DNA of 64,000 nt from an uncultured Lentimicrobiaceae bacterium (GCA_964469215.1 CAYXYB010000003.1:47348-111347), one strand, 5' to 3'; shown: positions 2,723-57,027, numbered from the stretch's first letter. Numbers and translations are program-made. Notes: generated from the sequence alone by a model not told the origin.

Positions 2723-4270
2723 TTATTGTCTGATGAACTTAATGGTTTGATTGTCTGCGCTGAAGAAATATATACCAACTGGCAGATCGCTGATATTCAG
2801 TTTTTCAATACCATTCTCAGGTACGCTCATATTTGCACTTCTTAAAACTCTTCCGGAAATGTCCCTGATTTTGTAATCTATAAGTGGCTGTTTGTTATAA
2901 TTTAATGATCTGATAAAGATTTCATCGTTTGCAGGATTCGGATAAAGAAGGTAGAGATCTTTTTTATTTGAAGATGGCATTGAACCAATGCTTGTCTGGA
3001 GCCCGATATTGGGGCCGATTGATCCGGTGCTGTCTGTTTTAATTATCATAATGTGAGTTGATCCTGACCCGAAACTTTTTGTGGTCCCTGTCATTATGTA
3101 CCCTTTTTCGCTTGTCAGTATCAGATGCACTGCAATATCATCCTCATCCCCTCCAAAGATCTGTGCCGGAAGATACTGGCTCCACCAGCCATCCGGATCA
3201 GCATTCTGCATGAAAAAATCCCGTTTCCCAAATCCATGCTGCCCTTTTGTCCAGTATCCTGCCATCCTGTATGTGCTGTCGGGCATCTGGATTATTGAAT
3301 AAAATGCAGCTTCATCCTCAGAACCGAGTCTGTTCTTCCATTCTACTCCACCACTACTGTCGAGACGTAAAATAAATGACTCCAGTCCGTAATCAACCCA
3401 GAAGGCACTCTGGCCGCACAAGATGTATCCGCCCGACAGATCGGGACGTATGCCGGTAGCAATATCCGGCCCCGCATAGTCTTCAACGATCTCCCAGTTG
3501 ACATTACCGTTATAATCAGTGTTGATAATATATAGTGCTGAATCACCATAAATACTGTAACTCTCACTATAACCGGCCATTATCAGACTATTATTATGTC
3601 CGGTGTCGATGGCCAGAAAGACATCATCCAATTGCCCTCCGAAACTCTTTTGCCACTGTAACACTCCGGAAGTGTCAAGGCAGCTCAGCGATGCCTGTTT
3701 TACTCCATAAATTGTATCTGTTGCCTCACCGGCAACGTGTATATTTCCATTTTCAGATATCACCAGCGCCCTTGCAAAATTCCATCCACCGCTACCCCAG
3801 TATTTTTCTTTCATGAGGTTCCCATGTATATCAGTAATTAAAAGCATGTTACGGTATGTGCCCTGTTGTGTGGCGTAACCTGCAAGGTAAATCCTGTTAT
3901 CTTTAAATGCTGCTGAAGTTACCTTTATAAGAAATGGCTTCTGTATTAAGAGATCCTTTATCAGACTGCCATATTGGTCAATATATGCAAGGTAAATTGC
4001 ACTGTTTGTTGAAAATCCTGAAGAATTACCGATTATCAGATAAGTGGAATCGTCCAACTGAAAAGTTCCTACACCCTCATTATATGTGCTGTTACCATAA
4101 ACGGCAACAAATTCAAGAGATTGGGATGCTACCCTAATAGAAGCAATAATTAACAGGATAATCAACATCAATGATCTCAAATCAGAGATAACTGATATAC
4201 CTTTTACTACGAATTTTGTTATTTGACACCTGTTTATAAATCTGTATAAAGCATCTTTCTGATAGATCAT
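2723..4270 (-). CDS. T9SS type A sorting domain protein with repeat (probable beta-propeller) body
   Basis: C-terminal LYPNPAND...IRDISGRVL...LNISDLPVGIYFFS...KFIRQ CTD; repeated GG..DD / YILxG units. ATGA overlap with the upstream gene; the true start may be the later MLIILLII. Confidence 0.8.
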   Translation of the reverse strand: MIYQKDALYRFINRCQITKFVVKGISVISDLRSLMLIILLIIASIRVASQSLEFVAVYGNSTYNEGVGTFQLDDSTYLIIGNSSGFSTNSAIYLAYIDQYGSLIKDLLIQKPFLIKVTSAAFKDNRIYLAGYATQQGTYRNMLLITDIHGNLMKEKYWGSGGWNFARALVISENGNIHVAGEATDTIYGVKQASLSCLDTSGVLQWQKSFGGQLDDVFLAIDTGHNNSLIMAGYSESYSIYGDSALYIINTDYNGNVNWEIVEDYAGPDIATGIRPDLSGGYILCGQSAFWVDYGLESFILRLDSSGGVEWKNRLGSEDEAAFYSIIQMPDSTYRMAGYWTKGQHGFGKRDFFMQNADPDGWWSQYLPAQIFGGDEDDIAVHLILTSEKGYIMTGTTKSFGSGSTHIMIIKTDSTGSIGPNIGLQTSIGSMPSSNKKDLYLLYPNPANDEIFIRSLNYNKQPLIDYKIRDISGRVLRSANMSVPENGIEKLNISDLPVGIYFFSADNQTIKFIRQ

Positions 4271-10586: not shown

Positions 10587-11633
10587 ATGGATATAATAAA
10601 AACTATCATCCCTCTTAAGGCCATATTTCCTGTAGTGCCAGTAATAATATTATTACTTTCAATAAACTCATGCAAAAAGGAAGAAGTTGAGCTGCCTGTT
10701 ACAGTTCCTGAATTGATCACAATAAGTGTAAGTGACATCGGTCAGGAAACAGCCACAACCGGCGGTAAGATAACCTACGACGGAGGAGATCTGATCACAG
10801 AAAAAGGGATTTGCTGGAACACTAACCCAAACCCTGTTTTCACCGACCGTATTACTTTGCAGGGGAAAGGTGCCAATTCCTTTGTTACGATACTGGAAAA
10901 TCTTGATCCGGGAGTGACCTACTACCTTAGAGCATATGCAAAAAACAGCATCGGAATTGGTTATGGTAACGAAATGAAATTTTCAACCATTCCGCTCGAG
11001 CCTCTGGCCGATATTGATGGAAATACATATACTGCCAAAACATATGGCAATCAGGTCTGGATGTTACAGAATCTAAAAACCACCCGCTTTAATGATGGTT
11101 CTATGATTGATATCCATACTGATTACAGCACCTGGTTTTACCTTACGAAACCGGTATATTGCTGGTACAACAACGACGAAGCTGCATACAAGGGTGTGTA
11201 TGGCGCTCTTTATAACTGGTATACAGTTGCTAGTGGAAAGTTGTGCCCGCACGGATGGCATGTCCCCGATGAACAGGAATGGGAAGAGCTCGAAATATTC
11301 CTGGGCATGAACCCTCTTGAAGCTGCTGCCCCTTATGGGTGGAGAGGTGAAACAGATAATATTGCCGGTAAAATGAAGGAAGTGGGTTTTATCCACTGGT
11401 CGCCACCCAATAAAGGAGCTACCAACGAATCCAGGTTTGCAGCCCTTCCCGGTGGCTGCAGAAACCTATACGGCACTTTTGAATATGTTAAAGACTATGC
11501 ATATTGGTGGACAGCCTCTGAAGCCGACACTACATATTCATGGGCACGCAGCTTAAGCTATAACCTTACTAGCGTTTACAAAAGTCAGTATTACAAACAA
11601 AGCGGATTCTCGGTCAGATGCATTAAGGACTGA
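10587..11633 (+). CDS. FISUMP (Fibrobacter succinogenes major paralogous) domain lipoprotein with FN3-like domain
   Basis: Lipobox INSC; ITEKGICW...YYLRAYAKN..GIGYG FN3-like unit; DIDGNTY, QVWM..NLK, GALYNW, LCPHGWHVP and GFSVRCIKD. Confidence 0.9.
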   Translation: MDIIKTIIPLKAIFPVVPVIILLLSINSCKKEEVELPVTVPELITISVSDIGQETATTGGKITYDGGDLITEKGICWNTNPNPVFTDRITLQGKGANSFVTILENLDPGVTYYLRAYAKNSIGIGYGNEMKFSTIPLEPLADIDGNTYTAKTYGNQVWMLQNLKTTRFNDGSMIDIHTDYSTWFYLTKPVYCWYNNDEAAYKGVYGALYNWYTVASGKLCPHGWHVPDEQEWEELEIFLGMNPLEAAAPYGWRGETDNIAGKMKEVGFIHWSPPNKGATNESRFAALPGGCRNLYGTFEYVKDYAYWWTASEADTTYSWARSLSYNLTSVYKSQYYKQSGFSVRCIKD

Positions 11634-11640
11634 TCAAAGC

Positions 11641-12633
11641 ATGAAAACATTCAACTCTTCGATGAAAATAAAAATAATATCACTCCTGACTCTGGTTTTC
11701 GTTACATCAATCCTCCTGTTTCTGAATGGATGTGAGGAAGAAGGAGAACATCTGCCCAGTGTCGAAACCTACGACCCCCTCGAGGTTCATTATATGAAAG
11801 CTCTTATGGGTGGCAGAGTTGTAAGTGATCACGGATTTCCTGTTACAACCAGAGGCTTTTGCTTTGCAAAGGGCAAAGTCCCTAATGTCAAAGACGATGT
11901 GTTGACTATTGGTTCCGGATCAGGTATATTTCAGGGTTATATTTCGGATCTTGAACCGGGTACCGAATATTATGTCAGAGCTTTCGCAACAAGCAAAAAA
12001 GGAACAGGTTATGGCTCCATTATGGTGCTCACAACAAAGCAGATCACAGATCCCGATGGTAATGTATATAAATATGTGAAAATCGGAAACCAGATATGGA
12101 TGAAGGAAAATCTGGCAACAACAATGCTAAATGACAGTTCTCCCATCGCCAGAGGATCTAACTCATCTGGTCCCGGAATATATCCATACTACTGTTTTTA
12201 TGATCACGATTCGGCAAAATACAGCACAACCTATGGGAAACTTTATTCCTTCTATGCAGTTAGCAGCGGTAAGCTCTGCCCTTTAGGATGGAAGGTGCCC
12301 TCTGTTGCAGATTGGGATCAGCTAAACAACTTTTTGGGTGGAAGTCAGGTTGCCGGTGGCAAACTGAAAGAGAAAGATACCACGAACTGGCAATTTGAAA
12401 ATATAGGAGCAACAAACGAAGTAGGATTCACAGCAAGGCCAGGTGGAATGCAAACCTACACATCAATTTTTCAGAATATACGGGTGGCAGGTTATTTCTG
12501 GACATCTGACACAACTTCATCGTCACTTTATGATGCATATTGCCAGCAACTGTATTATAACTCCGTGGTTATCCTCAGGCTGAATGAGAACAGGACAAGA
12601 TCCATGTCTGTGAGATGTATTCTGGATCAGTGA
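11641..12633 (+). CDS. Second FISUMP domain lipoprotein with FN3-like domain
   Basis: Lipobox LNGC; YYVRAFATS..GTGYG; DPDGNVY, QIWMKENL, YGKLY, LCPLGWKVP and MSVRCI. Confidence 0.9.
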   Translation: MKTFNSSMKIKIISLLTLVFVTSILLFLNGCEEEGEHLPSVETYDPLEVHYMKALMGGRVVSDHGFPVTTRGFCFAKGKVPNVKDDVLTIGSGSGIFQGYISDLEPGTEYYVRAFATSKKGTGYGSIMVLTTKQITDPDGNVYKYVKIGNQIWMKENLATTMLNDSSPIARGSNSSGPGIYPYYCFYDHDSAKYSTTYGKLYSFYAVSSGKLCPLGWKVPSVADWDQLNNFLGGSQVAGGKLKEKDTTNWQFENIGATNEVGFTARPGGMQTYTSIFQNIRVAGYFWTSDTTSSSLYDAYCQQLYYNSVVILRLNENRTRSMSVRCILDQ

Positions 12634-14718: not shown

Positions 14719-17700
14719 ATGTTTGCAATACTAAAACTATTTACCCTATTTCTTTACTTTGGATTGATATACATTTCCCATATTTTGGGTAACGTTCCTG
14801 ATACAATTATTGTCACCACTCACAATCGTACTACCGTGGTCACTGACCCTTCCAAAGGGGTTAGGTCACATCAGGAATGGGGGCTCTTTCCTTCACCTGA
14901 TGTGCAGATCCGGAAGATCATCATGAAGGTCACCTTTGGCTGCCCAGACACCATGCGCTGCGCCGACTGGGACTACTCAGACCGAATTGAACTTGTCCGT
15001 TCCGGTGGACCCATAGGCAAACGTTTGGGGTATGAGATTGGAAGGCTGATAACCCCTTACGGTGGTTTTTATGGCCGCAACTGGTCGTACACCTGGGAGG
15101 TGGATGTGACAGACTTCAGCATGATCCTCCGCGACAGCATATTGGTCGATTTTATCCATTCAGGGTACGAACCTGACAACGACCGTGGATGGCTGCTCAC
15201 CCTCACCTTTGAAATAGTCATAGGGAAACCTGCACTGGTGCCGGTTGCGTTTACAGAACTTTTTGACGACCATTTCCCTTATGGCGACCCTGAGAAACCG
15301 ATCCACGAGATTCTGACCCCGGAATCCTTCACCGCACACCCCGATGCAGCCTTCGCCCGCCTACGTGTGATACAGACCGGCCACGGAATGGATGCTCCGG
15401 ACAACTGCGCCGAGTTTTGCAGCAAGTACCGTGAGTTGTGGTACGATGGAAAACTGATTCAGAAGCGTCAGATGTGGAAGAAATGCGGCGACAATTCTGT
15501 ATACCCCCAGGCAGGAACATGGATCTTCGATCGTGGAAACTGGTGCCCCGGGGATCTGCTGCAACCCGAACTTTTTGAACTCCCTGTGGAACCCGGGAAG
15601 CAGCACAATATTGCTTTCGTGATGGAACCATATACAGCCACACGGCAAAACAACGGTCATCAGGTAATAAGTTCCTATGTCATTCAATACCGGAAATCTG
15701 AAGCCTTGCATGATGTGGCGCTGGAGGAGATTGTGGTTCCTTCACGGAAAAGTCTCCATTCGCGTCTCAATCCTGCTGCTGCAAACGGATTGGTAGTAGT
15801 CCGTAACATGGGGGCTGCAACGGTAAATGAGATGTTGATTGGCTATGGAACACGCGGATTCGAGTTTCAGGAATACCATTGGAAAGGACACCTGGAGCCG
15901 TATCAGGCTGTTCAGGTCACCCTTCCCGGTCAGATACTCAGCCGTGGGGAAGAGGGTATATTTATGGCAACAGCCCTGAGCGTGAATGGTGTAAAAGACG
16001 AATACCCAGCCGATAATCAATTGCAAACCAGCTTCTCTCCCGCTCCTGTACACGGACCGGTGCTTGTGTTTCGACTGGTCACAAACAATCAGCCTGAACA
16101 TAACGGATGGAAGCTGGAAAGCCACAGTGGTGAGGTTATCAGGGAGGTGAGCCCCGGAGCACTGCAGCCAGCCACCATCTATAACGACACCTTTCGTCTG
16201 GCACCCGGTGCCTGGACACTCACACTCACCGACACTGCCGGCGACGGTCTCGAGTTCTGGTATAACGAAAAAGGGGGCATGGGAGAGGCATTGCTCCTCA
16301 ATGACAGCGGAAACATTCTGAAAGCCTTTGAATCGGACTGTGGTTCAGGTTGGATATATAATTTTAGTATCGGAGATAACCCTGTGCTGCCCAACCCTTC
16401 AGACAAGGCTGTCAGCGTTTATCCTTCACGCACTTCAACCACAACAACATTGCGCTATCTGGCAAATACAACCGGTAATGTAGTGGTGAAGCTGGTTAAA
16501 GATCCGGGCAATGAGGTGGTTGAAGAGCGCTGTTACCCTGACCTCAGGGATGGTGTATTTACATTTGATCTGACCCGGTTCCCCTATGGTCGCTTTTTTT
16601 TGGAGGTTCACAGGGATGGAACACAAATTTTCAAACGTCGCATCCGCTTCGTGGACCCACCTGCCCAGGTGCAGGAACATCCATACACATGGCCACAGGA
16701 TCCCCTTGTGGCAGAAAAACTGGAGCAGTGGCAGGACTGGAAATTCGGGATCATTATTCATTGGGGAGCTTATAGGAAGTGGAGTGTTGTGGAGAGCTGG
16801 AGCCTGTGCCCCGAAGATGAACCATGGTGCGTACGAAGTGGCCCCCTGTCTGATCGTTATGAGGACTATGTGAGAGGATACGAAGGGATCAGGTGGTCAT
16901 TCTATCCCGAAGAATTTAATCCGGAAGGCTGGGCAAAAGCGGCAGCGAATGCAGGAATGAAGTATCTGGTGTTCACAACCAAACATCACGACGGCTTTTG
17001 TATGTTTGATACAAAATTCACAGATTATCGAATAGCAGACAGCAGTTCAGCCTTTTCAACAAACCCCAGATCCAATATTGCTAAGGAGGTCTTTGATGCA
17101 TTCAGAGCAGAAGGATTGGTAGCAGGGGTTTACTTCAGCAAACCGGACTGGCACAACGACGACTACTGGTGGCCCTACTTTCCGGTGCAGGATCGCAATG
17201 TAAACTACGACCCAAAAAAGTATCCTGAGCGGTGGAAAAGGTTTCAGGACTTCACCTATGCCCAGATCGAAGAGCTGATGACACAATATGGTGATGTTGA
17301 CATCCTGTGGCTTGATGGTGGCTGGGTGAGGCCGGAAGGTAGCCTTACCGAAGAAACACGCCCCTGGTTGGGAAAGAACCAGTATTTGCAGGACATAAAT
17401 ATGCCGGCGATTGCCACAATGGCCAGGAAACACCAACCCGGCCTGCTGATTGTTGACCGCACCGTCCACGGAGAGTATGAAAACTACCGCACCCCTGAGC
17501 AGCAAATACCGGACAGGAAGCCCGACTATCCATGGGAGAGTTGCATCACACTGGGCGACAGTTGGTACCACACGGGACCTGCTGAAAGGTATAAGTCATC
17601 AACATGGGCAATACACACCCTGGTAAAAATTGTCGCCAAAGGTGGTAACCTCCTGCTGGGTGTGGGTCCTGATGCTTCAGGTGAACTGCCTGAGGAGGTT

Positions 17701-18051
17701 TACAAAACATTCCGGGAGATTGGAGAATGGATGAAGGTAAACTCCGAAGCTATTTACAACACACGCCCGTTAGCTCCATATCAGGAGGAGAGTTTCTGCC
17801 ATACCATGGCCAACGACAGCTCATTTAAATATCTTATTTTGTTGATCCCCGAAGGACAAACTGTTCCCGGAACCATAAACCTCCCTGCTGGCTTTCTTTC
17901 CAACCGGCAGTCAATAACCATGTTAGGTCATCCGGCCAGGCTACCTGTGAAAATAATCAACGGAAAACCAACAGTGGCAATTCCGAAAAAGTTGAGCGCA
18001 CATTATAAGAATACCCCTGCGGTGGTATTCAGGATTGAAATGAAAAAATGA
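14719..18051 (+). CDS. Fusion: PNGase F-type peptide:N-glycanase + beta-sandwich/T9SS-CTD-like domain + GH29 alpha-L-fucosidase
   Basis: PNGase motifs CADWDY, GYEIGRLITPYG, TGHG..CAEFC and GTW..DRGNWCPG. GH29 motifs KFGIIIHWG, TTKHHDGF, WLDGG, WESCITLG and KGGNLLLGVGP. Single uninterrupted ORF. Confidence 0.85.
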   Translation: MFAILKLFTLFLYFGLIYISHILGNVPDTIIVTTHNRTTVVTDPSKGVRSHQEWGLFPSPDVQIRKIIMKVTFGCPDTMRCADWDYSDRIELVRSGGPIGKRLGYEIGRLITPYGGFYGRNWSYTWEVDVTDFSMILRDSILVDFIHSGYEPDNDRGWLLTLTFEIVIGKPALVPVAFTELFDDHFPYGDPEKPIHEILTPESFTAHPDAAFARLRVIQTGHGMDAPDNCAEFCSKYRELWYDGKLIQKRQMWKKCGDNSVYPQAGTWIFDRGNWCPGDLLQPELFELPVEPGKQHNIAFVMEPYTATRQNNGHQVISSYVIQYRKSEALHDVALEEIVVPSRKSLHSRLNPAAANGLVVVRNMGAATVNEMLIGYGTRGFEFQEYHWKGHLEPYQAVQVTLPGQILSRGEEGIFMATALSVNGVKDEYPADNQLQTSFSPAPVHGPVLVFRLVTNNQPEHNGWKLESHSGEVIREVSPGALQPATIYNDTFRLAPGAWTLTLTDTAGDGLEFWYNEKGGMGEALLLNDSGNILKAFESDCGSGWIYNFSIGDNPVLPNPSDKAVSVYPSRTSTTTTLRYLANTTGNVVVKLVKDPGNEVVEERCYPDLRDGVFTFDLTRFPYGRFFLEVHRDGTQIFKRRIRFVDPPAQVQEHPYTWPQDPLVAEKLEQWQDWKFGIIIHWGAYRKWSVVESWSLCPEDEPWCVRSGPLSDRYEDYVRGYEGIRWSFYPEEFNPEGWAKAAANAGMKYLVFTTKHHDGFCMFDTKFTDYRIADSSSAFSTNPRSNIAKEVFDAFRAEGLVAGVYFSKPDWHNDDYWWPYFPVQDRNVNYDPKKYPERWKRFQDFTYAQIEELMTQYGDVDILWLDGGWVRPEGSLTEETRPWLGKNQYLQDINMPAIATMARKHQPGLLIVDRTVHGEYENYRTPEQQIPDRKPDYPWESCITLGDSWYHTGPAERYKSSTWAIHTLVKIVAKGGNLLLGVGPDASGELPEEVYKTFREIGEWMKVNSEAIYNTRPLAPYQEESFCHTMANDSSFKYLILLIPEGQTVPGTINLPAGFLSNRQSITMLGHPARLPVKIINGKPTVAIPKKLSAHYKNTPAVVFRIEMKK

Positions 18052-18073: not shown

Positions 18074-19393
18074 ATGCTTATGAAACGTTACTTATATCTG
18101 CTTCTTATCATCAACCTGGTCTCTTCTGCTTCTGCCCAGCAAGATACTTCATCCAAACTTGAATGGTTCTCAAACGCCCGCCTGGGGATCTTTATCCACT
18201 GGGGTATTTATTCTGTGGATGGTGTTAGCGAGTCATGGTCATTTCACAATGGCAGAATACCTCATGAGGTTTACATGCAGCAGATCCAAAGATTCAGTGC
18301 GGAAGCATATTCCCCTTCGGAATGGGTGAATCTGATAAGACAAAGCGGTGCCAGGTATGCGGTGATAACATCCAAGCATCATGATGGTGTTGCACTATGG
18401 GATACCCGGGCAAACGATCTTAGCATCCCGAAAGTCTCTCCCGCTGCAAGAGATGTTCTCACACCCTTTGTTGATGAACTTAAAAAAGCAGAGTTGAAAA
18501 CAGGAATCTATTTCTCGCTAATAGACTGGACATATCCCGATTATCCCGGTTTTCTCAAAGATTCATCCCGGTATAAAGCGGAGGAAGACACAGTTCGCTG
18601 GAACCGGTATATGCACTTCTGCAACACTCAAATAGATGAACTTCTGCAAAGGTACAACCCCGACCTTTGGTGGTTCGATGGCGACTGGGAACACCCGGCT
18701 GAACGTTGGAACGCACCAGGTATCCGTGCGAGGATCCTGTCCCGAAACCCCATGGCCATTATCAACGGCCGACTGCAGGGGTACGGTGATTATGAAACTC
18801 CTGAACAGCATACCCCTGTAAATCCGCCTAATACACCTGCGTGGGAGCTTTGCATGACCATCAATGATTCATGGGGGTATCAAAAAGCAGATACCAATTA
18901 CAAAAGCCCCTACGAGATAATATCAATATTTGCAGATGTGGTCGGAATGGGAGGGAATCTGCTGCTCGATATCGGTCCGAAATCGGATGGAACCATCCCG
19001 CCGGAACAGGTTAACATTCTGAATCAAATGGGTAACTGGACAAGAAAACATGCCGAAGCCATCTTCGACACCCGAAAAGGATTGCCCTATGGTCACTTCT
19101 ACGGTCCATCAACCCTCTCTGCCGACTCCACTACCCTGTACCTTTTCTTGTCACATGGAGCCAGTAATAATGTAGTTATCAAGGGATTGAGGAACGAAAT
19201 AAAAAGGATCGAGGTGCTGGGAACCGGAAAAACCCTTCACTATAAAATAGTCGGCAAGATATCGTGGAGCTGGGTACCCGGTTTGGTTTTCATTGATATC
19301 CCAAAGGAACATCATGACCCTTACATTACAGTGCTGAAAGTTGAATTAGATGGACCGGTATGGCTCTACCGTGGGAAGGGTGGGTTTAATTAA
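18074..19393 (+). CDS. GH29 alpha-L-fucosidase (secreted)
   Basis: Signal peptide; LGIFIHWGIY, TSKHHDG, WWFDGDW, WELCMT...SWGY and GGNLLLDIGP. Confidence 0.92.
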   Translation: MLMKRYLYLLLIINLVSSASAQQDTSSKLEWFSNARLGIFIHWGIYSVDGVSESWSFHNGRIPHEVYMQQIQRFSAEAYSPSEWVNLIRQSGARYAVITSKHHDGVALWDTRANDLSIPKVSPAARDVLTPFVDELKKAELKTGIYFSLIDWTYPDYPGFLKDSSRYKAEEDTVRWNRYMHFCNTQIDELLQRYNPDLWWFDGDWEHPAERWNAPGIRARILSRNPMAIINGRLQGYGDYETPEQHTPVNPPNTPAWELCMTINDSWGYQKADTNYKSPYEIISIFADVVGMGGNLLLDIGPKSDGTIPPEQVNILNQMGNWTRKHAEAIFDTRKGLPYGHFYGPSTLSADSTTLYLFLSHGASNNVVIKGLRNEIKRIEVLGTGKTLHYKIVGKISWSWVPGLVFIDIPKEHHDPYITVLKVELDGPVWLYRGKGGFN

Positions 19394-19418
19394 AAATTGA
19401 TTGTCTAAAGTTTTATAT

Positions 19419-21683
19419 ATGAGATCAATAATAAGGTTTACTTTAAGTTCGATACAACTCGCCATCCTCTTTCTGGCTTTAACCCTGGAGTCAGTAATAG
19501 CCCAGTTCCCTCTGGTAAATGATAGTGGTACAGGTGCGGTTATTGTTTGTCAGACGAGAAGCGATACACTTACTGTGCTTGCTGCTAAAGAATTACAGGC
19601 ATACATTTCCCGAATCTCAGGTGTGCAGCTTCCAATCTCTGAAAAGAATGGGAGAATCAGCCATCCAAACGTTTATTTAGGAAAATCTTTTCTGCCGGCA
19701 AACCAACTCAAACGACTTGAGTCCGACCCGATGCAGGAGGCATTTATAATATACTCTGAAAAGAACCGTCTCTTTATGGCAGGCAAACAACCCATTGGTG
19801 ACTTATACGCAGTGTACACATTGCTGGAAGAATTCCTTGGGTGTGTAAAATTCAACGCAGATGAGATGCTTGTGCCCCTTCAGAAGAGCATTGTGGTGCC
19901 TCACATGGACAGAATCTGGTCTCCTGCCTTTAGCTTCCGGATTCCCTCCTTTAAGGATAGGTGGAACTCAGGTTTTTGTCACTGGCATAAAGTGAACACT
20001 TTCAGCGACTGGGGCAGGTGGTGGGTGCATTCGTTTCATCGCCTGGTACCTCCCGAAGTATATTTTGATGAGCATCCGGAGTATTTTGCTCTTGTGGATG
20101 GCCGAAGATTGCAGGATGGACAGCTCTGCCTGGGAAATCCGGAAGTGATTGAACTATTAAAGACTAACCTTGGCCGGGAGATTGAGCTGAACCCCACAGC
20201 AAATTACTGGTCTGTCTCTCAAAACGACTGCTATAACTATTGTGAGTGTGATCTTTGTCAGAAGATTTACGACGATTACGGCAGCTTTTCAGGAGCCTAT
20301 ATATATATGTCAAATGAGCTTGCCAAGGCATTCCCCGAAAAACAGATATCCACCCTGGCTTACCAGTTCACCAGAAAAGCCCCCTCGGGGATTGCCCCAT
20401 TACCCAACGTAAACATTATGTTCTGCTCAATAGAGTGTAACCGTAGCATGCCCCTTGAAGAAGATCACAGAAGCTCGGATTTTGTTAAGGATTTGAAAGC
20501 ATGGGCAACAATTACAGGAAATATTTTTGTGTGGGATTATGTGGTTCAGTTCAGGAACTACCTCACACCATTTCCTAATTTCCATGTGCTGCAGCCCAAT
20601 ATTCAATTCTTTCGTGAACAGGGTGGCAAAATGATGTTTCAACAGGGAAGTGGCCAAAACTGGTCTGATCTTTCCGATCTGAAACAGTATCTGATAGCTA
20701 AGCTTCTGTGGAATCCCGACCTGGATGCCGATTCAGTGATCAACCGTTTTATAGCAGCTTATTACGGAGGAGCTGCTCTTTACATCCGTGAATACTTCGA
20801 TCTTACACATGCCGCAATCCGGGGTGTTGAGAAAGAACAACGGCTCGATATCTATGGTTTTCCGGTATTCTATAAAGATGCACATCTAACTGCTGATCTG
20901 TTGCTGACCTATGACCAGCTTATGCAGAAAGCTGAACAGGCAGTTTCAAAGGACTCTGTTCTGCTGACGAGGGTTTGGAGGGCACGGCTGCCTGTCAACT
21001 TTGCTATCCTGGATCTGGCCCTGAACACATATCTTCCTCCGTGGCCTGCAGTGTTGAATAACAAAACAAATCCGCTGTTAACAGAACGTCTGGATCGTTT
21101 TGTGGAACGATGTCAAAGCACCGGCATTAAGGCCATCAACGAAAGAAACCTTAGCCCTGAGGCTTACAGGGATTATGCCATCGGTCTGCTTCAAAAGATG
21201 GTATCACCAAACCATCTCGACGATGCCTCTGTAAAGATTCAGACACAATACAGCCACAAATATCCTGTCGGAGGTGAAAAAGCTCTTAATGACAGGCTTA
21301 TGGGTGGCCTGAGTTACCATTTTAACTGGCTGGGATTTGAGGGTGAGGACATGGTGGTGGAAGCTACTTTTCCGTTACCTGTTAACGCATCCGCCGTTTC
21401 TATGAACTTTATGCACGCGGTAGAGTCCTGGATATTCCTTCCTTATCGTCTTAGTGTCGATGTATCGACAGATGGTGTCATGTTCAACGAGGTGGCAGTA
21501 ATGGATATTGACAATTCAGATCGCAACTATCTGGACAGGTCTGTACCTTTTCGGTTGACTTTTCAGCCACAGGAGGTTAAGGCGATAAGGATCACAGCCC
21601 TTTCGATGAAAACCTGCCCAGAATGGCACCGCGGTTTCGGAAAGCCCTCCTGGATATTTATCGATGAATTGATTGTGGAGTGA
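19419..21683 (+). CDS. DUF4838 domain protein with C-terminal F5/8-type (discoidin-like) module
   Basis: Signal peptide; AAKELQ.YISRISG N-domain; HSFHRLVPP..YFDEHPEY, QLCL.NPEV, TLAY and WDY..QF; KY..GG...LND and WIF.DEL.VE C-terminus. Confidence 0.8.
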   Translation: MRSIIRFTLSSIQLAILFLALTLESVIAQFPLVNDSGTGAVIVCQTRSDTLTVLAAKELQAYISRISGVQLPISEKNGRISHPNVYLGKSFLPANQLKRLESDPMQEAFIIYSEKNRLFMAGKQPIGDLYAVYTLLEEFLGCVKFNADEMLVPLQKSIVVPHMDRIWSPAFSFRIPSFKDRWNSGFCHWHKVNTFSDWGRWWVHSFHRLVPPEVYFDEHPEYFALVDGRRLQDGQLCLGNPEVIELLKTNLGREIELNPTANYWSVSQNDCYNYCECDLCQKIYDDYGSFSGAYIYMSNELAKAFPEKQISTLAYQFTRKAPSGIAPLPNVNIMFCSIECNRSMPLEEDHRSSDFVKDLKAWATITGNIFVWDYVVQFRNYLTPFPNFHVLQPNIQFFREQGGKMMFQQGSGQNWSDLSDLKQYLIAKLLWNPDLDADSVINRFIAAYYGGAALYIREYFDLTHAAIRGVEKEQRLDIYGFPVFYKDAHLTADLLLTYDQLMQKAEQAVSKDSVLLTRVWRARLPVNFAILDLALNTYLPPWPAVLNNKTNPLLTERLDRFVERCQSTGIKAINERNLSPEAYRDYAIGLLQKMVSPNHLDDASVKIQTQYSHKYPVGGEKALNDRLMGGLSYHFNWLGFEGEDMVVEATFPLPVNASAVSMNFMHAVESWIFLPYRLSVDVSTDGVMFNEVAVMDIDNSDRNYLDRSVPFRLTFQPQEVKAIRITALSMKTCPEWHRGFGKPSWIFIDELIVE

Positions 21684-21728
21684 GTGATGTTCATTGATGA
21701 TTTCCTCCATTTTTCCTACTTTTACCCC

Positions 21729-24659
21729 ATGAATCCGCTTACGGAACTCGCAGAATCCATCGAAGGGGAAGTTCGTCAGGATCCCGATATCAGGTATATC
21801 TACTCAACAGATGCTTCAATATACCGTGAAGTGCCTAGTGCTGTGGCTTTTCCGAAGAATTCCGCTGATCTCCGGAAAATCACTGAATGGTCTTTTAAAA
21901 ATAAAGTACCGGTCATTCCCAGGACAGCAGGCACCTCATTGGCTGGACAAGTTGTTGGGAAAGGTGTAATAGTGGATGTTGCACGATACCTGAACAGAAT
22001 TATTGAGATTAACCCTGAAGAAAAATTTGTTTGGGTTGAACCCGGTGTTATTCGGGATGACCTTAACAGAGTATTAAAAACCCATAACCTCTTCTTTGCA
22101 CCGGAAACCTCAACATCAAACAGATGCATGACAGGGGGTATGACCGGCAACAATTCCTGTGGAGCCAACTCATTGATATATGGTAGCGTGCGAGACCATC
22201 TGCTGGAGGTTGAAGGTTATTTGTCTGACGGAACCCCATTTCATGCTTTTCCTGTTGATGAAGAAACCCTGAATATAAAGATCTTGGAAGATTCAAGAGA
22301 GGGTGAAATATATCGCTTTATATGTGATAATTTGATGAGTCCATCTGTGCAGGAACAGATTGATAATGTCTTTCCGTGGAAGGAGATAAGAAGAAGAAAT
22401 ACTGGTTACGCTCTCGACACTCTTCTTGATATGAAGCCCTTTAAACCGGATGGTGAAAGACTTAATCTGTCCCCAATCATAGCAGGATCCGAAGGCACTT
22501 TGATGATGATCTCTGCCCTTAAATTAAACCTGGTTCCTTTAATCAGCCGGGAGAGGGTTTTACTTTGCTCTCATTTCAGAAGTCTCGATGAAGCACTTGA
22601 GGCAAACCTGAAAATCCTTCAATATCCAGTTGGTTCTATAGAATTGATAGATAAAACAATTATTGAATGTATAGCATCACATCCCGGATTGAAGAACCAT
22701 AGTTCCTTTATACAGGGTAAACCTGAGGGAGTTCTACTGGTTGAAATATTCGGAGAATTTAAGAAGAAATCGGAAGAGATAACAAAATCGATTGTTGAAG
22801 ATCTTGAATCAGCCAATCTCGGATATCATCATCTTGTATTATCTGGAAATGAGATCAGGAAGGTGATGGAATTGCGCAAGGCTGGCTTGGGATTGCTGGC
22901 AAATATGAAGGGTGACCGGAAGCCTGTTACTTTTATCGAAGATGCAGCTGTAAGGTCTATTGATATTCTGTCCTACATAAGAGAAATCAGGGCAATGCTT
23001 CAGGGTCACGACCTCTCGGCTGCATATTACGGACATGTTGGAACGGGTGAAATCCACATTAAACCTTTCATGGATCTCAGCAAGCCCGAACATCGTGATC
23101 TGCTCAGGGAGGTTTCTTTACAGACAGCTCTTCTTGTGAAAAAATACAGAGGCTCACTGAGTGGAGAGCATGGGGATGGCAGACTGAGGGGAGAGTTTAT
23201 CCCTCTCTTGTATGGGAAGCAGATATACGACCTTTTTAAAGGGCTCAAGGCAGCATTCGACCCGGAAGGGTTGCTTAATCCTGGAAAGATCACAGATGCT
23301 CCTCCGGTAAACACCTCTCTTAAATTTTTAGATGGGTTCAGTATACCCGGTTTCAAGCCTGCTTTTAACTATAACAGTGATGGAGGCTTTTTTAAGGCTC
23401 TGGAACGATGCAGTGGATCGGGTGACTGCAGGAGGCCTTTCTGGCACGAAGCTATCATGTGCCCTTCTTATCAGGCTACAAACGATGAATATTTCTCCAC
23501 CAGGGGTAGAATTAACCTAATTAAAGAAATACTCATTCGGCAGACAGATAAACCGTTTTCGGACAAATCACTGAAAAGGGTGCTTGATAGCTGCCTTTCA
23601 TGTAAGGGATGTAGATCCGAATGCCCCGGTGCTGTGGATATGGCCAGGTATAAAGCAGAGATCCTTCATCAATATCATCGGTATCATAACCGGACATCTG
23701 GTGAGAAACTTGTGATCAATATCTACAATACCAACCGTTTGTTTGGTAATATTCCCAAAGTTTATAATGCCTTGTTGTCGATAAACCCTGTTGCTTCTTT
23801 AGTTAAACACCTTGCCGGAATACATCCCAGAAGAGAACTGCCCAAACTCTCATCACCTACACTTGAAACATGGATAAAACGTAATAAGGAATCGATGCTC
23901 CCAATTGTTCCGATGAATGCAGGTAAGCTTATATTCTTTGTTGATGAATTCACAAACCATTATGATGCTGAAGTAGGAATTAAAGCTATAAAGCTTCTGC
24001 ATATCCTTGGATATGAGATTATACCTTATATGTATTCGCAAAGTGGCAGGGCTTTGATCTCAAAGGGCTCCCTTGATAAAGCCAGGAAAATTGCCAATAA
24101 AAATATTATCAACCTTAAAAACCTTGGTGCAGCCGAAATACCATTCATTGGTATTGAACCTTCTACAATACTTACTTTTTCAGATGAATATCCTGATCTG
24201 GTAAGTCCTGACCGGGGAAAAGATGCCGGAATAATTGCCTCCAATACTTTTCTTATTGAAGAGTTTCTGGTGAAGGAATACGAAAAAGGTGCCTTTAGTT
24301 CAGATCTGTTCACAGGAAAAAAACAGAAGGTACTTTTCCACGGACATTGTCATCAGAAATCATTGAGGAGGTCGGATGCTTTACGAAAAATACTTTCGAT
24401 TCCGGCCGGGTATGAACCTGAAGAAATTAATAGTGGCTGTTGCGGCATGGCAGGTTCATTTGGAATGGAAAAGGATCATTACCAACTTTCTATGAAGATT
24501 GGGGAGCTGATTTTATTTCCACGACTAAGGGAAATTTCCGATGGTACGATAGTTGCTGTGCCGGGAACGAGTTGCCGCAGCCAGATCCTTCACGGAACAG
24601 GTATCAAGGCACTTCACCCATTAGAAATACTTTTTAATGCATTGATTGACAAGATTTAA
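21729..24659 (+). CDS. FAD-linked oxidase with C-terminal 4Fe-4S / CCG domains (GlcD/GlcF, YdiJ-like)
   Basis: YSTDASIY, RTAGTSLAGQ, GGMTGNNSCG, GSEGTL, SGEHGDG, C.G.G.C, CLSCKGC..ECP and CCGMAGSFG. Confidence 0.9.
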   Translation: MNPLTELAESIEGEVRQDPDIRYIYSTDASIYREVPSAVAFPKNSADLRKITEWSFKNKVPVIPRTAGTSLAGQVVGKGVIVDVARYLNRIIEINPEEKFVWVEPGVIRDDLNRVLKTHNLFFAPETSTSNRCMTGGMTGNNSCGANSLIYGSVRDHLLEVEGYLSDGTPFHAFPVDEETLNIKILEDSREGEIYRFICDNLMSPSVQEQIDNVFPWKEIRRRNTGYALDTLLDMKPFKPDGERLNLSPIIAGSEGTLMMISALKLNLVPLISRERVLLCSHFRSLDEALEANLKILQYPVGSIELIDKTIIECIASHPGLKNHSSFIQGKPEGVLLVEIFGEFKKKSEEITKSIVEDLESANLGYHHLVLSGNEIRKVMELRKAGLGLLANMKGDRKPVTFIEDAAVRSIDILSYIREIRAMLQGHDLSAAYYGHVGTGEIHIKPFMDLSKPEHRDLLREVSLQTALLVKKYRGSLSGEHGDGRLRGEFIPLLYGKQIYDLFKGLKAAFDPEGLLNPGKITDAPPVNTSLKFLDGFSIPGFKPAFNYNSDGGFFKALERCSGSGDCRRPFWHEAIMCPSYQATNDEYFSTRGRINLIKEILIRQTDKPFSDKSLKRVLDSCLSCKGCRSECPGAVDMARYKAEILHQYHRYHNRTSGEKLVINIYNTNRLFGNIPKVYNALLSINPVASLVKHLAGIHPRRELPKLSSPTLETWIKRNKESMLPIVPMNAGKLIFFVDEFTNHYDAEVGIKAIKLLHILGYEIIPYMYSQSGRALISKGSLDKARKIANKNIINLKNLGAAEIPFIGIEPSTILTFSDEYPDLVSPDRGKDAGIIASNTFLIEEFLVKEYEKGAFSSDLFTGKKQKVLFHGHCHQKSLRRSDALRKILSIPAGYEPEEINSGCCGMAGSFGMEKDHYQLSMKIGELILFPRLREISDGTIVAVPGTSCRSQILHGTGIKALHPLEILFNALIDKI

Positions 24660-40365: not shown

Positions 40366-41811
40366 TCAGAGTTTGATCTTTTTTTCGAGTTCTTCTATAT
40401 ATAACTTGAACTTCTTATCGGTTTCCTGCAGGTTGTTTACTGTGCGGCATGCATGAAGAACAGTTGCATGATCTTTGTTTCCGCAATGCAGGCCTATTGT
40501 TGCCAGTGAAGCTTTCGTGAGTTTTTTACTAAAATACATTGCTAATTGCCTGGCCTGCACAATCTCCCTTTTGCGTGTCTTTGACACCATCAACTCAACT
40601 GGCAGGTTAAAATAGTCGCAAATAACTTTTTGGATATAATCTATTGAAATCTCCCTTGTAGTGCTCTTTACAAACTTGTCGATCATCTGGCGCGCCAGTT
40701 CAAGTGTGATAGCCTTTTTGTTAAGTGACGACTGTGCAATAATGGAAATAAGTGCTCCTTCAAGTTCTCTTACATTTGTTGTAATCGAGTATGCAAGGTA
40801 TTCAACAACTTCACGGGGTATGGTAATGCCGTCCTGGTAAAGTTTCTTGTCAAGAATGGCAATTCTGGTTTCCAGGTCAGGCACCTGCAGGTCTGCAGAT
40901 AATCCCCATTTGAATCGTGAAAGTAATCTGGGTTTAATCCCCTGCATCTCCACCGGAGGTTTGTCTGAGGTAATTACCAGTTGCTTGCCATTCTGATGGA
41001 GATGATTGAAGATGTTGAAGAAGATGTCCTGGGTTTTCTCTTTGCCGCTAAGAAACTGAATATCATCAATTATCAGAACATCCATCATCTGGTAGAAGTG
41101 TACGAAATCGTTCTGCGAATTGTTTCTTACCGCATCTATAAACTGGTTGGTAAATTGATCCAGTGTGACATATAAAACCGTTTTTTCGGGGAAATGATTT
41201 TTTACTTCAAGCCCTATTGCCTGTGCAAGGTGAGTTTTTCCCAGGCCAACGTTGCTATATATCAGAAGTGGGTTAAAGGAGGTTTTTCCGGGTGCCTGGG
41301 CAACCGCAAATCCTGCGCTTCGCGCAAGTCGGTTGCAATCACCTTCAATAAATGAATCAAAGGAATAACTCTCGTTGAGTTGTGAATTGACTTTAATTTT
41401 TCTCAGGCCTGGAATTATAAAAGGATTTGGTATCTCTTTAACATTATCGCGGTTCAGGTCAATTGGCATAGAAACGAATGCATTCTGTGTAGCCTTTTTG
41501 TTTGTGGTTGGCATATTGATTTTGTAAGGCTCACCTTTTCCGTCTGCGCCTGCGGTATTATCCATTATAATACTGTATTCAAGCCTCCCTTCAGGCCCCA
41601 ATTCTTTTCTAATCGTCTTACGAAGAAGAGTAATATAATGCTCTTCAAGCCACTCGTAAAAAAACTGACTAGGCACCTGAATAGTTAGTATCTGGTCACT
41701 TAGCTTTACTGGAAGGATAGGCTCAAACCATGTTTTGAAGCTCTGATAGCTAATGTTATCACGAATTATGGCAAGACAGTTTTGCCAGACTTCATCACAT
41801 GTTTGTTTCAT
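40366..41811 (-). CDS. dnaA: Chromosomal replication initiator
   Basis: WFEPI, FNPLLIYSNVGLGKTHL (Walker A), LIIDDIQFL, RLLSRFKWGL, NVRELEG, RQLAMY and KDHATVLHA. Start placed at MKQTCDEVW. Confidence 0.97.
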   Translation of the reverse strand: MKQTCDEVWQNCLAIIRDNISYQSFKTWFEPILPVKLSDQILTIQVPSQFFYEWLEEHYITLLRKTIRKELGPEGRLEYSIIMDNTAGADGKGEPYKINMPTTNKKATQNAFVSMPIDLNRDNVKEIPNPFIIPGLRKIKVNSQLNESYSFDSFIEGDCNRLARSAGFAVAQAPGKTSFNPLLIYSNVGLGKTHLAQAIGLEVKNHFPEKTVLYVTLDQFTNQFIDAVRNNSQNDFVHFYQMMDVLIIDDIQFLSGKEKTQDIFFNIFNHLHQNGKQLVITSDKPPVEMQGIKPRLLSRFKWGLSADLQVPDLETRIAILDKKLYQDGITIPREVVEYLAYSITTNVRELEGALISIIAQSSLNKKAITLELARQMIDKFVKSTTREISIDYIQKVICDYFNLPVELMVSKTRKREIVQARQLAMYFSKKLTKASLATIGLHCGNKDHATVLHACRTVNNLQETDKKFKLYIEELEKKIKL

Positions 41812-42128
41812 ATAAAGTATTGTGTTATTATGGTTATGATCGGCTTGCAAAGATGGTTCAAAAAAAAGATGATAAATATAACAAAAAAAACTTGACTTTC
41901 TACTTTTTTTATATTAAGGGGTAAACTTTTCATTTTTTGATCTCCAGAAATTAATCCATTCAATATCGAGTTCTTAGTTGTCGAATTGTCATCAAACCTT
42001 CTTCTTAACATTAACATAACCATAATTTATAACAATCTGTTTCTCTAATACTGGGTTTCTAATATATGTTATTTGACTGTATGATCCAGATATTATGTGT
42101 TTTAACGCCAATGATTAAATCGCTTTTA

Positions 42129-53692: not shown

Positions 53693-55636
53693 ATGAGTTA
53701 CATTCAGTTCGATAAAACGAAGCTCATCAACCTGGAATATTCACTATCCCGGGAACTAATAAGGTCAAATCGTTCAGGGGCTTATGGGAGCACAACAATA
53801 ATCAGCTGCAACACCAGAAAATACCATGGATTGCTTGTTGTCCCTCAACCCGGGTTAGATGATGAACTTCATATTCTGTTGTCATCATTTGATGAGACAA
53901 TCATCCAGAATGATGCAGAGTTTAATCTGGGGCTGAGGAAATATCCTGGAGGCAACTGGCAGCCCAAAGGTCATAAATATATCAGGGATTTTGAGTCAGA
54001 TCCAATTCCGACAGTAATTTACAGAGTAGGAGGGGTAGTTCTTAAAAGAGAATCTCTTCTGGCCACTAATGCAGACCAGATATTACTAAGATACACCCTT
54101 CTGGATGCTCATTCACCAACCAGCCTCCGTTTTTCACCTTTTCTTCTTTTCAGGAGCAGACATGAACTCAGTAAAGCAAACATTTTCGCTGATTCCAACT
54201 ATATCCCTGAAAAAAATGGCATTAGTATGCGTCTCTATTCAGGATATTCAAGCCTCGTAATGCAATTCTCAAAAGAACCTTTATATGTTCACTTTCCGAA
54301 CTGGTATTACAATATAGAGTATATAAAGGAGCAGGAGAGGGGTTATGATTATAGTGAAGACCAGTTTGTGCCAGGTTATTTTGAGCTCCCAATAGCTAAG
54401 GGGGAAACCATAGTTTTCTCTGCTTCAACAAAAGCGACCCCTCCCGATAAGCTTAAAGCTTTTTTTAATCGTGAAATCAGTCAAAGAATTCCACGTAATA
54501 GTTTTCTTAATTGCCTTAAAAATTCTGCACAACAATTTCTTGTTCAAAAATGTAATTCAACAGAGGTCATTGCAGGTTTTCCTTGGTACGGCAGATCGGG
54601 CCGGGATACATTCATTTCTTTACCGGGCCTTACTCTTGAAACCGGAAATATGCGTCTGTTTAGATCAGTCGTCAGCACTATGATTTTGGAAATGAAGGGC
54701 CCGCTATTCCCCAACCGGGGTTATAGAAAAATGGTAACATACGACTCTGTGGATACCTCTCTGTGGTTTTTCTGGGCAATCCAGCAATATACCAAGCATA
54801 CTTCCGATTGGTCCGGAGCATGGAAGTTATGGGGAAAGGCGATGGAGCAGGTTCTGGAGGGTTATCTGTCAGGTACATCATTCAACATCAGGGTGAACGA
54901 TTTGGGATTGATTGAAGCAGGTGATAAGGCAACTGCCCTGACCTGGATGGATTCAATGGTTGACAGTAACCCAGTGACTCCCCGGTATGGAATGGCAGTG
55001 GAAGTGAACGCTTTATGGTATAATGCTCTTTGTTATTTCTCATTCCTGGCAGGAAAGAACAATAATGATATACTGTCTGATCGCTATCTTGAACTTTCAT
55101 ACCTCACTAAGCCAAAATTTATTGAATTATTCTGGGATTCAAGAAGGCGTTGTCTTTACGACAATGTTGATGGGAATAATAAAGACGACACAGTACGTCC
55201 GAATCAGATAATAGCCGCATCTCTTCCTTATTCAATGCTTTCTGATGAACAAATAAGAATGGTCATCGATAATGTCAGATCAGTTCTGCTCACACCAAGA
55301 GGTCTTCGTACCTTATCGCCACATCATCCCGATTATAAAGGTGATTTTTCAGGCGACTATGCACAACGGGATGCTTCAATGCATCAGGGTGCTGCTTACC
55401 CATGGCTTTCAGCACATTTTGCCGAAGCATGGTTACGCATTTATGGTGCTGAGGGCCTTAGTTATGTCGAAGATATTTTTTATAGTTTTGAAGAGACTAT
55501 GAAGGAAGATGGCCTTGGGACAATTTCGGAAATTTACGAAGGAAATCCACCGCACAGAGCAGGTGGAGCAATCTCACAAGCCAGAAATGTTGCTGAACTG
55601 CTTAGAATTTACGGTCTGATAAGCAGGTATAAGTAA
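53693..55636 (+). CDS. Glycogen debranching enzyme (amylo-alpha-1,6-glucosidase, GDE_N + GDE_C)
   Basis: TRKYHGLL, IAGFPWYG..GRDTFI.LPGL, LTWMD, AVEVNALWYNAL, RPNQI, TPRGLRTLSP, HQG and ISEIYEG. Confidence 0.92.
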   Translation: MSYIQFDKTKLINLEYSLSRELIRSNRSGAYGSTTIISCNTRKYHGLLVVPQPGLDDELHILLSSFDETIIQNDAEFNLGLRKYPGGNWQPKGHKYIRDFESDPIPTVIYRVGGVVLKRESLLATNADQILLRYTLLDAHSPTSLRFSPFLLFRSRHELSKANIFADSNYIPEKNGISMRLYSGYSSLVMQFSKEPLYVHFPNWYYNIEYIKEQERGYDYSEDQFVPGYFELPIAKGETIVFSASTKATPPDKLKAFFNREISQRIPRNSFLNCLKNSAQQFLVQKCNSTEVIAGFPWYGRSGRDTFISLPGLTLETGNMRLFRSVVSTMILEMKGPLFPNRGYRKMVTYDSVDTSLWFFWAIQQYTKHTSDWSGAWKLWGKAMEQVLEGYLSGTSFNIRVNDLGLIEAGDKATALTWMDSMVDSNPVTPRYGMAVEVNALWYNALCYFSFLAGKNNNDILSDRYLELSYLTKPKFIELFWDSRRRCLYDNVDGNNKDDTVRPNQIIAASLPYSMLSDEQIRMVIDNVRSVLLTPRGLRTLSPHHPDYKGDFSGDYAQRDASMHQGAAYPWLSAHFAEAWLRIYGAEGLSYVEDIFYSFEETMKEDGLGTISEIYEGNPPHRAGGAISQARNVAELLRIYGLISRYK

Positions 55637-55695
55637 ATTGGCAAAATATATAAAATGAATAATGATATAAAATTGAATACCAATACATTACAGCT

Positions 55696-56976: not shown

Positions 56977-57027
56977 TAGAAATTTACATTTGTAAACATA
57001 GCTAAAATAATAATAACAATCAGATAT

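Follow-up and report, generated by a model that had tools for sequence, protein, structure and literature searches.

A conserved fusion of a PNGase F-superfamily module with a GH29 alpha-L-fucosidase in Bacteroidota

Peptide-N-glycosidases (PNGases) and fucosidases are in standard use for analysing glycans and for the glyco-engineering of antibodies, and the glycan-degrading enzymes of the Bacteroidota commonly include multi-enzyme fusions. In Bacteroides (Phocaeicola) massiliensis, separate loci encode the PNGase B035DRAFT_03341, which carries a bowl-like module at its N-terminus and depends on core alpha-1,3-fucose, and the GH29 core alpha-1,3-fucosidase B035DRAFT_02132, a distinct protein whose action comes late (PMC9522356). 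The same study proposed that the site of action of Bacteroides PNGases bearing type I signal peptides is the periplasm, with imported glycopeptides as their substrates. In PNGaseDo of Draconibacterium orientale, which has been screened biochemically, a PNGase F-superfamily module precedes three beta-sheet modules and a C-terminal signal for type IX secretion (T9SS) (PMC12381499). The subject of the present analysis is a gene in which such a module and a fucosidase are joined. It lies in a stretch of 64,000 nucleotides (nt) from an uncultured Lentimicrobiaceae bacterium (GCA_964469215.1 CAYXYB010000003.1:47348-111347), hereafter the window, of which positions 14719..18051 (+) form a single open reading frame (ORF) of 1110 amino acids (aa) with an ATG start, as a first-pass annotation had claimed.

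Every module of this protein belongs to a known family, and it is their conserved fusion that is uncharacterised. The first-pass annotation did not recall the fusion as characterised, and full-text literature searches likewise found no paper describing a PNGase F-GH29 fusion; the databases annotate such proteins automatically. The parts of the protein, from the N-terminus, are as follows:

14719..14790, + strand: predicted signal peptide, residues 1-24, MFAILKLFTLFLYFGLIYISHILG, without a lipobox cysteine; a hydrophobic N-terminus read from the sequence
14800..15693, + strand: PNGase F-superfamily catalytic module of two beta-sandwich domains, residues ~28-325, with D85, E232 and R272
15694..16383, + strand: two accessory beta-sandwich modules, residues ~326-445 and ~446-555, the second with a conserved DTAGDGLEFW motif
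16384..16653, + strand: third beta-sandwich module, residues ~556-645, apparent counterpart of a T9SS type-A sorting domain, internal here
16654..16698, + strand: junction or linker, residues ~646-660, PPAQVQEHPYTWPQD
16699..17748, + strand: GH29-A alpha-L-fucosidase barrel, residues ~661-1010, with the predicted nucleophile D866 and the candidate acid/base E927
17749..18051, + strand: C-terminal beta-sandwich domain of the GH29 part and stop codon, residues ~1011-1110

A signal peptide at residues 1-24 is suggested by the single helix that residues 2-24 form in an AlphaFold2 model and by the equivalent hydrophobic N-termini of all the aligned homologues. The full-length model has a predicted local distance difference test score (pLDDT) of 82 and a predicted template modelling score (pTM) of 0.56, and the mutual placement of the two catalytic modules is not readable from it.

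The first-pass annotation had called for a search for full-length homologues. Such a search, which covered 5.8 billion proteins, found ~37 clusters of relatives of ~1100 aa, 54-75% identical and all with both Pfam domains. These fused clusters come from JGI, ENA, NCBI and Logan assemblies, on contigs of up to 647 kb, and one of them is present on 67 contigs, the longest of 2.9 Mb. GenBank also holds fused copies (for instance MFZ4464673.1, MBP1672347.1, HRQ28958.1, HNV49718.1 and HOG65836.1), and automatic annotation calls most fused proteins 'alpha-L-fucosidase' and others 'Peptide-N-glycosidase terminal'. Among the species representatives of GTDB (one genome per species), 19 species carry the uninterrupted fused ORF (L001-L019), all of them metagenome-assembled genomes (MAGs) labelled as Bacteroidales, Lentimicrobiaceae, Draconibacterium, 'Saprospiraceae' or Bacteroidota. 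In a neighbour-joining tree of the N-terminal halves, all the fused genes form one clade. The fusion is genuine and conserved, and it arose once.

The linker consists of 8-10 variable Pro/Glu-rich residues followed by the conserved Y.WP.D.LV..KL..WQDWKF, and in the full-length model pLDDT is <50 at residues 649-654. Its derivation can be read from Solitalea koreensis, where the fused-type GH29 is a separate gene, 61% identical, whose product has a 24-residue signal peptide and then EKEFPYHWPTDNLVSQKLKQWQDWKF. The mature start of this stand-alone fucosidase (EKEFPYHWPTDNLVSQKL...) matches the conserved part of the fusion linker, so that the fusion joins the end of the sorting-domain-like module to the mature N-terminus of a fucosidase; the fucosidase part of the fusion protein itself has no signal peptide of its own, as had been claimed. 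A simple origin, in which two adjacent genes merged when the stop codon separating them was lost, was considered and rejected: Solitalea (L076) and Rubrolithibacter (L035) have the fused-type GH29 gene directly upstream of their PNGase gene, and the gene usually found after stand-alone PNGase genes encodes another type (GH29b, described below), only 30% identical to the fused GH29.

The one cue that might point to an artefact of mis-assembly, of a sequencing frameshift or of read-through is that a normally terminal module, the T9SS-type sorting domain, lies well inside the ORF. However, the same in-frame junction, free of stop codons, recurs across projects and assemblers in the ~37 clusters and the 19 species-level genomes, the linker is conserved in both length and motif, and simple read-through cannot yield the fused order from genomes in which the GH29 gene is upstream. 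An artefact has practically no chance of being the explanation, and the earlier conclusion that the fusion is a true one holds.

In some lineages, the fusion has been undone. The protein P0041 (L082 728-2728) is 79% identical to the N-terminal half of the fused protein P0009 and stops after the first linker residues (EPVKEQ*). A split gene was rejected here because the stop is real and an unrelated convergent gene follows it, so the GH29 has been lost secondarily. P0040, which also groups with the fused clade, stops in the same way 69 nt before the end of its contig, and a complete stand-alone PNGase-related gene (L021 8980-10926) is nested inside the fused clade. As separate observations, the non-coding stretch after the P0041 stop holds repeated TGTTGTATG units, and the closest relative on a long contig (P0004, L083 9001-11832), 75% identical, was called at 943 aa, or 81% of the query.

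The catalytic module at the N-terminus belongs to the PNGase F superfamily (N-glycanase_N/N-glycanase_C; IPR015197), as judged from profile and sequence matches together with the conservation of the catalytic Asp, Glu and Arg. In a Pfam scan, N-glycanase_C (PF09113) matches residues 201-321 (E 2e-15, 57 bits against a cut-off of 25), and N-glycanase_N (PF09112) gives no match of its own in the fusion protein; of the domains that the first-pass annotation had expected from such a scan, N-glycanase_C and Alpha_L_fucos were therefore found and N-glycanase_N was not. A phmmer comparison with sequences of the Protein Data Bank (PDB) aligns residues 55-322 with residues 31-300 of PNGase F (1PNG/1PNF; E 4e-12), which covers both beta-sandwich halves. 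In this alignment, from which the mature numbering of PNGase F was counted by us, CADW84-D85-Y corresponds to W59-D60, CAE232FC to E206, and D271-R272-GNWCPG to D247-R248, and the three catalytic equivalents thus lie where the first reading had put them. That reading had taken the whole N-terminal half for a PNGase, which is right for residues 55-322 but overlooked the three accessory beta-sandwich modules in residues 326-645.

Across 65 homologues, with a mean column identity of about 50%, residues W84, D85, Y86, Y114, E151, W158, H222, E232, F233, R272 and W275 are invariant, as are the cysteine pairs C75/C81, C230/C234 and C256/C276. Invariance of catalytic residues at this overall identity is the pattern to be expected of an active enzyme rather than of a lectin-like remnant. 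Moreover, the active members of the superfamily are described as having the active-site features 'aromatic-D-aromatic/positive' and 'His + Glu' (PMC12381499), to which the W-D-Y motif and the His/Glu pair of the family conform.

Another possibility is that the PNGase-like part is not an N-glycanase but a glycan-binding targeting module, or an amidase acting on another glycoconjugate, in which case the protein would be a large fucosidase. The public name of most fused proteins would agree with this, as would the Pfam result, in which only the C-terminal PNGase domain reaches the threshold, the replacement of several residues that contact the substrate in PNGase F (see below), and the narrow specificity of most enzymes in the published screen (PMC12381499). 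It is difficult to reconcile, however, with the invariance of the catalytic residues, their flanking aromatics and the three cysteine pairs, with the features shared with active superfamily members, and with the lineages that kept the PNGase part after the loss of GH29. We regard this alternative as unlikely.

The C-terminal half contains a complete GH29 domain, as the first-pass annotation had proposed. Alpha_L_fucos (PF01120) matches residues 650-1010 (E 1.7e-90, Pfam), and the motifs HWG (681-683), KHHDGF (755-760) and LWLD866GG (863-868) are present. The best PDB sequence match of this half is 6GN6 (E 9e-55), and Foldseek gives a template modelling (TM) score of 0.79 to the same structure, the fold being a (beta/alpha)8 barrel. 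D866 aligns with the 'lwfD' Asp of 6GN6, and E927, in YRTPEQ, with its 'spEq' Glu, which we take from the GH29-A literature to be the catalytic nucleophile and the acid/base, respectively. H681, H756, H757, D866 and E927 are invariant in 37/37 fused proteins, and the barrel is the best-conserved part of the fusion protein (72% mean pairwise identity). Residues ~1011-1110 are all-beta in the model and align with the C-terminal domains of BT2970 and TmFuc (query to 1091-1092); neither Pfam nor NCBIfam gives a Por_Secre_tail or type-B C-terminal domain match in this region. The top matches are GH29-A enzymes, namely 6GN6, 9EU1-4 (named GH29A), TmFuc and BT2970, with E values of 1e-28 to 1e-55, whereas the alpha-1,3/4-fucosidases 3UES and 3MO4, used for comparison with GH29-B, reach E ~1e-13 with only partial coverage of the domain. 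By sequence, the fused fucosidase is closer to GH29-A than to GH29-B. Both halves of the protein look catalytically competent.

Between the two enzymes, the AlphaFold2 model of residues 326-650 (pLDDT 88.5) is all-beta and divides into three modules (~326-445, ~446-555 and ~556-645). No Pfam or NCBIfam match was found for the first two; an attempt to place them in a carbohydrate-binding family failed, and Foldseek gives generic FN3/MG-type tandem-domain matches only. The third module of the window protein scores 15-16 bits on Por_Secre_tail (E 0.016-0.03), a weak match below the 27-bit cut-off; across the family, 16/40 third-module segments match Por_Secre_tail at E<=0.05 (best 1e-4), and 23/40 match DUF3244.

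The nature of this module becomes clearer from a family of stand-alone proteins of ~640-650 aa (the ~645-aa 'peptide-N-glycosidase F-related protein') found in Solitalea, Pontibacter, Hymenobacter, Rufibacter, Flavisolibacter, Mucilaginibacter and other Bacteroidota genera, which are 46-53% identical to window residues 1-645 over their full length. They share the signal peptide, the catalytic module and the three beta-sandwich modules with the window protein but stop at the sorting domain and are predicted T9SS cargo, whereas the window protein runs on into GH29. Several full-length members have a precomputed PF18962 match, and most of the aligned ones end in '...KKRIRLKE*', opposite RIRFVD645 of the window protein, where the linker begins. 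On this comparison, the third module appears to be a diverged T9SS type-A sorting domain, the counterpart of the terminal domain of the stand-alone relatives. The term 'derived from' a sorting domain is preferred to a working one because ~465 residues follow the module, which is C-terminal in the relatives. With a sorting domain and then a fucosidase in one ORF, what was formerly a secretion signal would now lie in mid-protein.

We know of no T9SS signal situated away from the C-terminus, and T9SS cargo cannot be secreted without the last two strands of its sorting domain (reviewed in PMC5445135). Could the internal module nevertheless still work as a signal, so that the whole protein crosses the outer membrane and both enzymes act on the cell surface or outside the cell, perhaps with a sortase cutting where the module ends? 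Its identity relative to that of the catalytic domain is 0.89 in the fused and 0.90 in the stand-alone proteins, so that a relaxation of selection on the buried domain was rejected. T9SS cargo is, moreover, encoded in this genome: a 515-aa ORF in the window (2723-4270, -) has a C-terminal Por_Secre_tail (E 1.5e-10) and no other Pfam match, which indicates that the organism has ordinary T9SS cargo, and the stand-alone relatives are predicted to be secreted. Yet the essential strands are here followed by ~465 folded residues, and the profile score of the window module is below the threshold; a working internal signal is, on balance, very unlikely. Were the buried domain still to direct export, it would be the first non-terminal T9SS signal, with a folded enzyme downstream. 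Since the sorting module is still under constraint, a periplasmic location for the fusion protein is only what we infer.

Two genes follow the fusion gene closely, with gaps of 22 nt between the fusion gene and the first, and of 7 nt between the first and the second:

18074..19393, + strand: GH29b, a second, separate GH29-A protein of 439 aa with its own predicted signal peptide; PF01120 E 5.6e-89
19401..21683, + strand: DUF4838 protein with a C-terminal F5/8-like domain, of GH163-type architecture and with a probable signal peptide; PF16126 E 9.5e-102

Orthologues of GH29b, 55-75% identical, lie beside the fusion in seven loci (L003, L004, L014, L016, L017, L018 and L083). The same type directly follows a stand-alone PNGase-related gene in 7 unfused genomes (L020, L040, L043-L046 and L052), which are those of Pedobacter arcticus, two Mucilaginibacter, Paraflavisolibacter, Paracnuella and two further MAGs. 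Full-length orthologues of the DUF4838 protein occur near the fusion in L002, L003, L004, L012, L018 and L083; fusion, GH29b and DUF4838 genes are found together in the same order in L083 and in other orders in L003, L004 and L018, and the L018 cluster also has a major facilitator superfamily (MFS) transporter and a GH3 protein with a PA14 domain. BT1035, the founding member of GH163, combines DUF4838 with an F5/F8 domain and cleaves GlcNAc-beta-1,2-Man (GlcNAc, N-acetylglucosamine; Man, mannose) in complex N-glycans, though DUF4838 proteins are a diverse group (PMC10570127). The protein encoded at 19401-21683 has this combination of DUF4838 and a C-terminal F5/F8-type domain, the likeness to BT1035 being one of described architecture, and its residues 618-759 match the C-terminal domain of the GH20 structure 6Q63.

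In Solitalea koreensis (L076 2599-18779), the genes on one strand encode, in order, a short-chain dehydrogenase/reductase (SDR), a GH20 with F5/8, a fumarylacetoacetate hydrolase (FAH)-family hydrolase, a GH29, an Amidohydro_2 protein, a GH29 with F5/8, the fused-type GH29, the PNGase F-related protein, another SDR, a GH29b, a LutA-type and a LutB-type protein, and then a 191-aa ORF; there are four GH29 in total. We take this set to match fucose release plus the non-phosphorylative fucose pathway that ends in lactate. The locus looks like a combined one for the release of fucosides and the non-phosphorylative catabolism of fucose, and as the strain is cultured, it offers a practical organism for testing the family. 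These conserved neighbourhoods provide independent support for a functional link of this PNGase family with fucosidases, and the gene context supports fucosylated N-glycans as the probable target.

Directly after the DUF4838 stop in the window, a GTG start opens a gene for a 991-aa FAD-linked oxidase with 4Fe-4S domains (21684-24659, +). This gene was left out of the cluster since its adjacency is not conserved in any related locus. The LutA-/LutB-type lactate-utilisation genes of Solitalea occupy an equivalent position, a hint at the oxidation of fucose-derived lactate.

The best explanation, which we hold to be probable rather than assured, is that the gene encodes an exported two-enzyme protein that, with its cluster partners, would degrade fucosylated N-glycans, most likely in the periplasm. 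The protein would be exported by Sec via its N-terminal signal peptide. Its amidase module would cut the GlcNAc-Asn bond, so that glycoproteins or glycopeptides lose their N-glycans, and the tethered GH29-A would remove a fucose from the same glycan, the fusion keeping the two activities together and in equal amounts. The presumably co-transcribed GH29b and the GH163-type DUF4838 enzyme could then carry the breakdown further. Unlike its stand-alone relatives, which are predicted to be secreted, the enzyme would stay in the periplasm and act on imported glycopeptides, because the sorting domain is no longer C-terminal and its last strands are the essential part of the signal.

Several observations weigh against this explanation. 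In the window, the cluster is not flanked by SusC/SusD or other import genes. The sorting module is as conserved in the fused as in the stand-alone proteins and may keep a function, possibly that of a signal, and an explicit statement or experiment to the effect that a downstream extension blocks T9SS export was not found in the literature checked. The loss of the fucosidase module in the P0041 and L021 lineages means that the fusion is not essential. In the amidase module, the loops that carry the invariant E232 and R272 (223-233 and 256-279; nt ~15385-15555) have pLDDT <50, the remainder of the module being modelled confidently. Finally, several residues that contact chitobiose in PNGase F are replaced, on our reading of the alignment (R61->Y86, W191->T220 and W207->F233), and the substrate specificity may therefore differ. 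As to the two loops, they may be flexible or disulfide-dependent active-site loops.

The order in which the two activities would operate is a further question. The first-pass annotation suggested that the fused GH29 might remove a blocking core alpha-1,3-fucose so that a PNGase F-type amidase could then act on intact plant or insect glycoproteins. That the PNGase family and fucosidases work together is evident from the fusion and the conserved neighbourhoods; the GH3 protein with PA14 adjoins the L018 cluster, and the breakdown of plant N-glycans involves a GH3 xylosidase (PMC9522356). The same paper cites a GH29 enzyme, cFase I, as removing core alpha-1,3-fucose from plant N-glycans with antennae. 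However, the closest characterised or solved relatives of the fused fucosidase (6GN6, 9EU1-4, TmFuc and BT2970) are GH29-A enzymes, which do not suggest a specificity for core alpha-1,3-fucose. In the one bacterial pathway for plant N-glycans that has been worked out, that of B. massiliensis, the PNGase comes first, and its core alpha-1,3-fucosidase works only on glycan that has already been released and trimmed (PMC9522356). In addition, the newly tested PNGase F-superfamily enzymes were modelled with open space at C3 of the core GlcNAc (PMC12381499), so that no unblocking would be needed by those enzymes, and since the binding-site residues of the fusion differ from those of PNGase F, the restriction of the latter cannot be assumed for it. 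The unblocking idea thus finds no specific support and is highly improbable, whereas the other role put forward at the outset, the trimming of released glycans, fits the known pathways at least as well. It is similarly doubtful, a long shot at best, that the protein is a one-polypeptide tool whose GH29 takes off core fucose (alpha-1,3 and/or alpha-1,6) while the glycopeptide is still intact or right after release; if it were, a single enzyme would free and defucosylate plant, insect or mammalian N-glycans.

A natural enzyme with both activities could serve as a reagent, and it would reveal how Bacteroidota in the environment live on fucosylated glycoproteins. As a gene fusion, it is also evidence that GH29 fucosidases are working partners of the large ~645-aa 'PNGase F-related' family. 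The fusion is, moreover, a natural experiment on T9SS signals, in which a domain that is terminal in the relatives has been buried by a 465-residue enzyme and is still conserved.

Elsewhere in the window, a second enzyme fusion is found at 58720-62985 (+), where a 1421-aa ORF combines a glycogen/starch synthase (residues 19-342), DUF3417 and an alpha-glucan phosphorylase (841-1190); it sits in a glycogen cluster with the genes at 53693-58560 for a debranching enzyme (GDE_N/GDE_C), a GT4 and a GH57. Tandem paralogues of 348 and 330 aa at 10587-12633 (+) have C-terminal Fib_succ_major domains (E 5e-42 and 2e-38, respectively). A DnaA gene (Bac_DnaA, DnaA_N and DnaA_C domains) lies at 40366-41850 (-), and the window may consequently lie near the chromosomal replication origin.

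How, then, does the fusion protein compare with the known systems? With PNGase F of Elizabethkingia meningoseptica (1PNG/1PNF/1PGS/3PMS), it shares the two-domain beta-sandwich amidase, in which D60, E206 and R248 are kept and W59, Y85, E118, W251 and the three disulfide cysteine pairs have conserved counterparts; the identity is low (phmmer 48 bits), the window protein adds three beta-sandwich modules and the fused GH29, and its amidase activity is predicted. With the GH29-A enzymes, namely isoenzyme 1 of Paenibacillus thiaminolyticus (6GN6), 9EU1-9EU4, TmFuc of Thermotoga maritima (1HL8) and BT2970 of Bacteroides thetaiotaomicron (2WVV), it has the barrel and C-terminal beta-sandwich in common. 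The identity in structural alignments is 25-29%, and the window GH29 differs in its family-specific insertions (SWSLCPEDEPWC; VRPEGSLTEETRPWLGKNQYLQD), in its attachment to a PNGase and in its want of a signal peptide. The PNGase of B. massiliensis (7ZGN) is a distant relative of the window module (E 0.0066, phmmer). The layout of PNGaseDo, as described in its publication, is that of the stand-alone family, from which the protein described here is set apart by the fucosidase fused beyond the sorting domain; PNGaseDo has no fused fucosidase.

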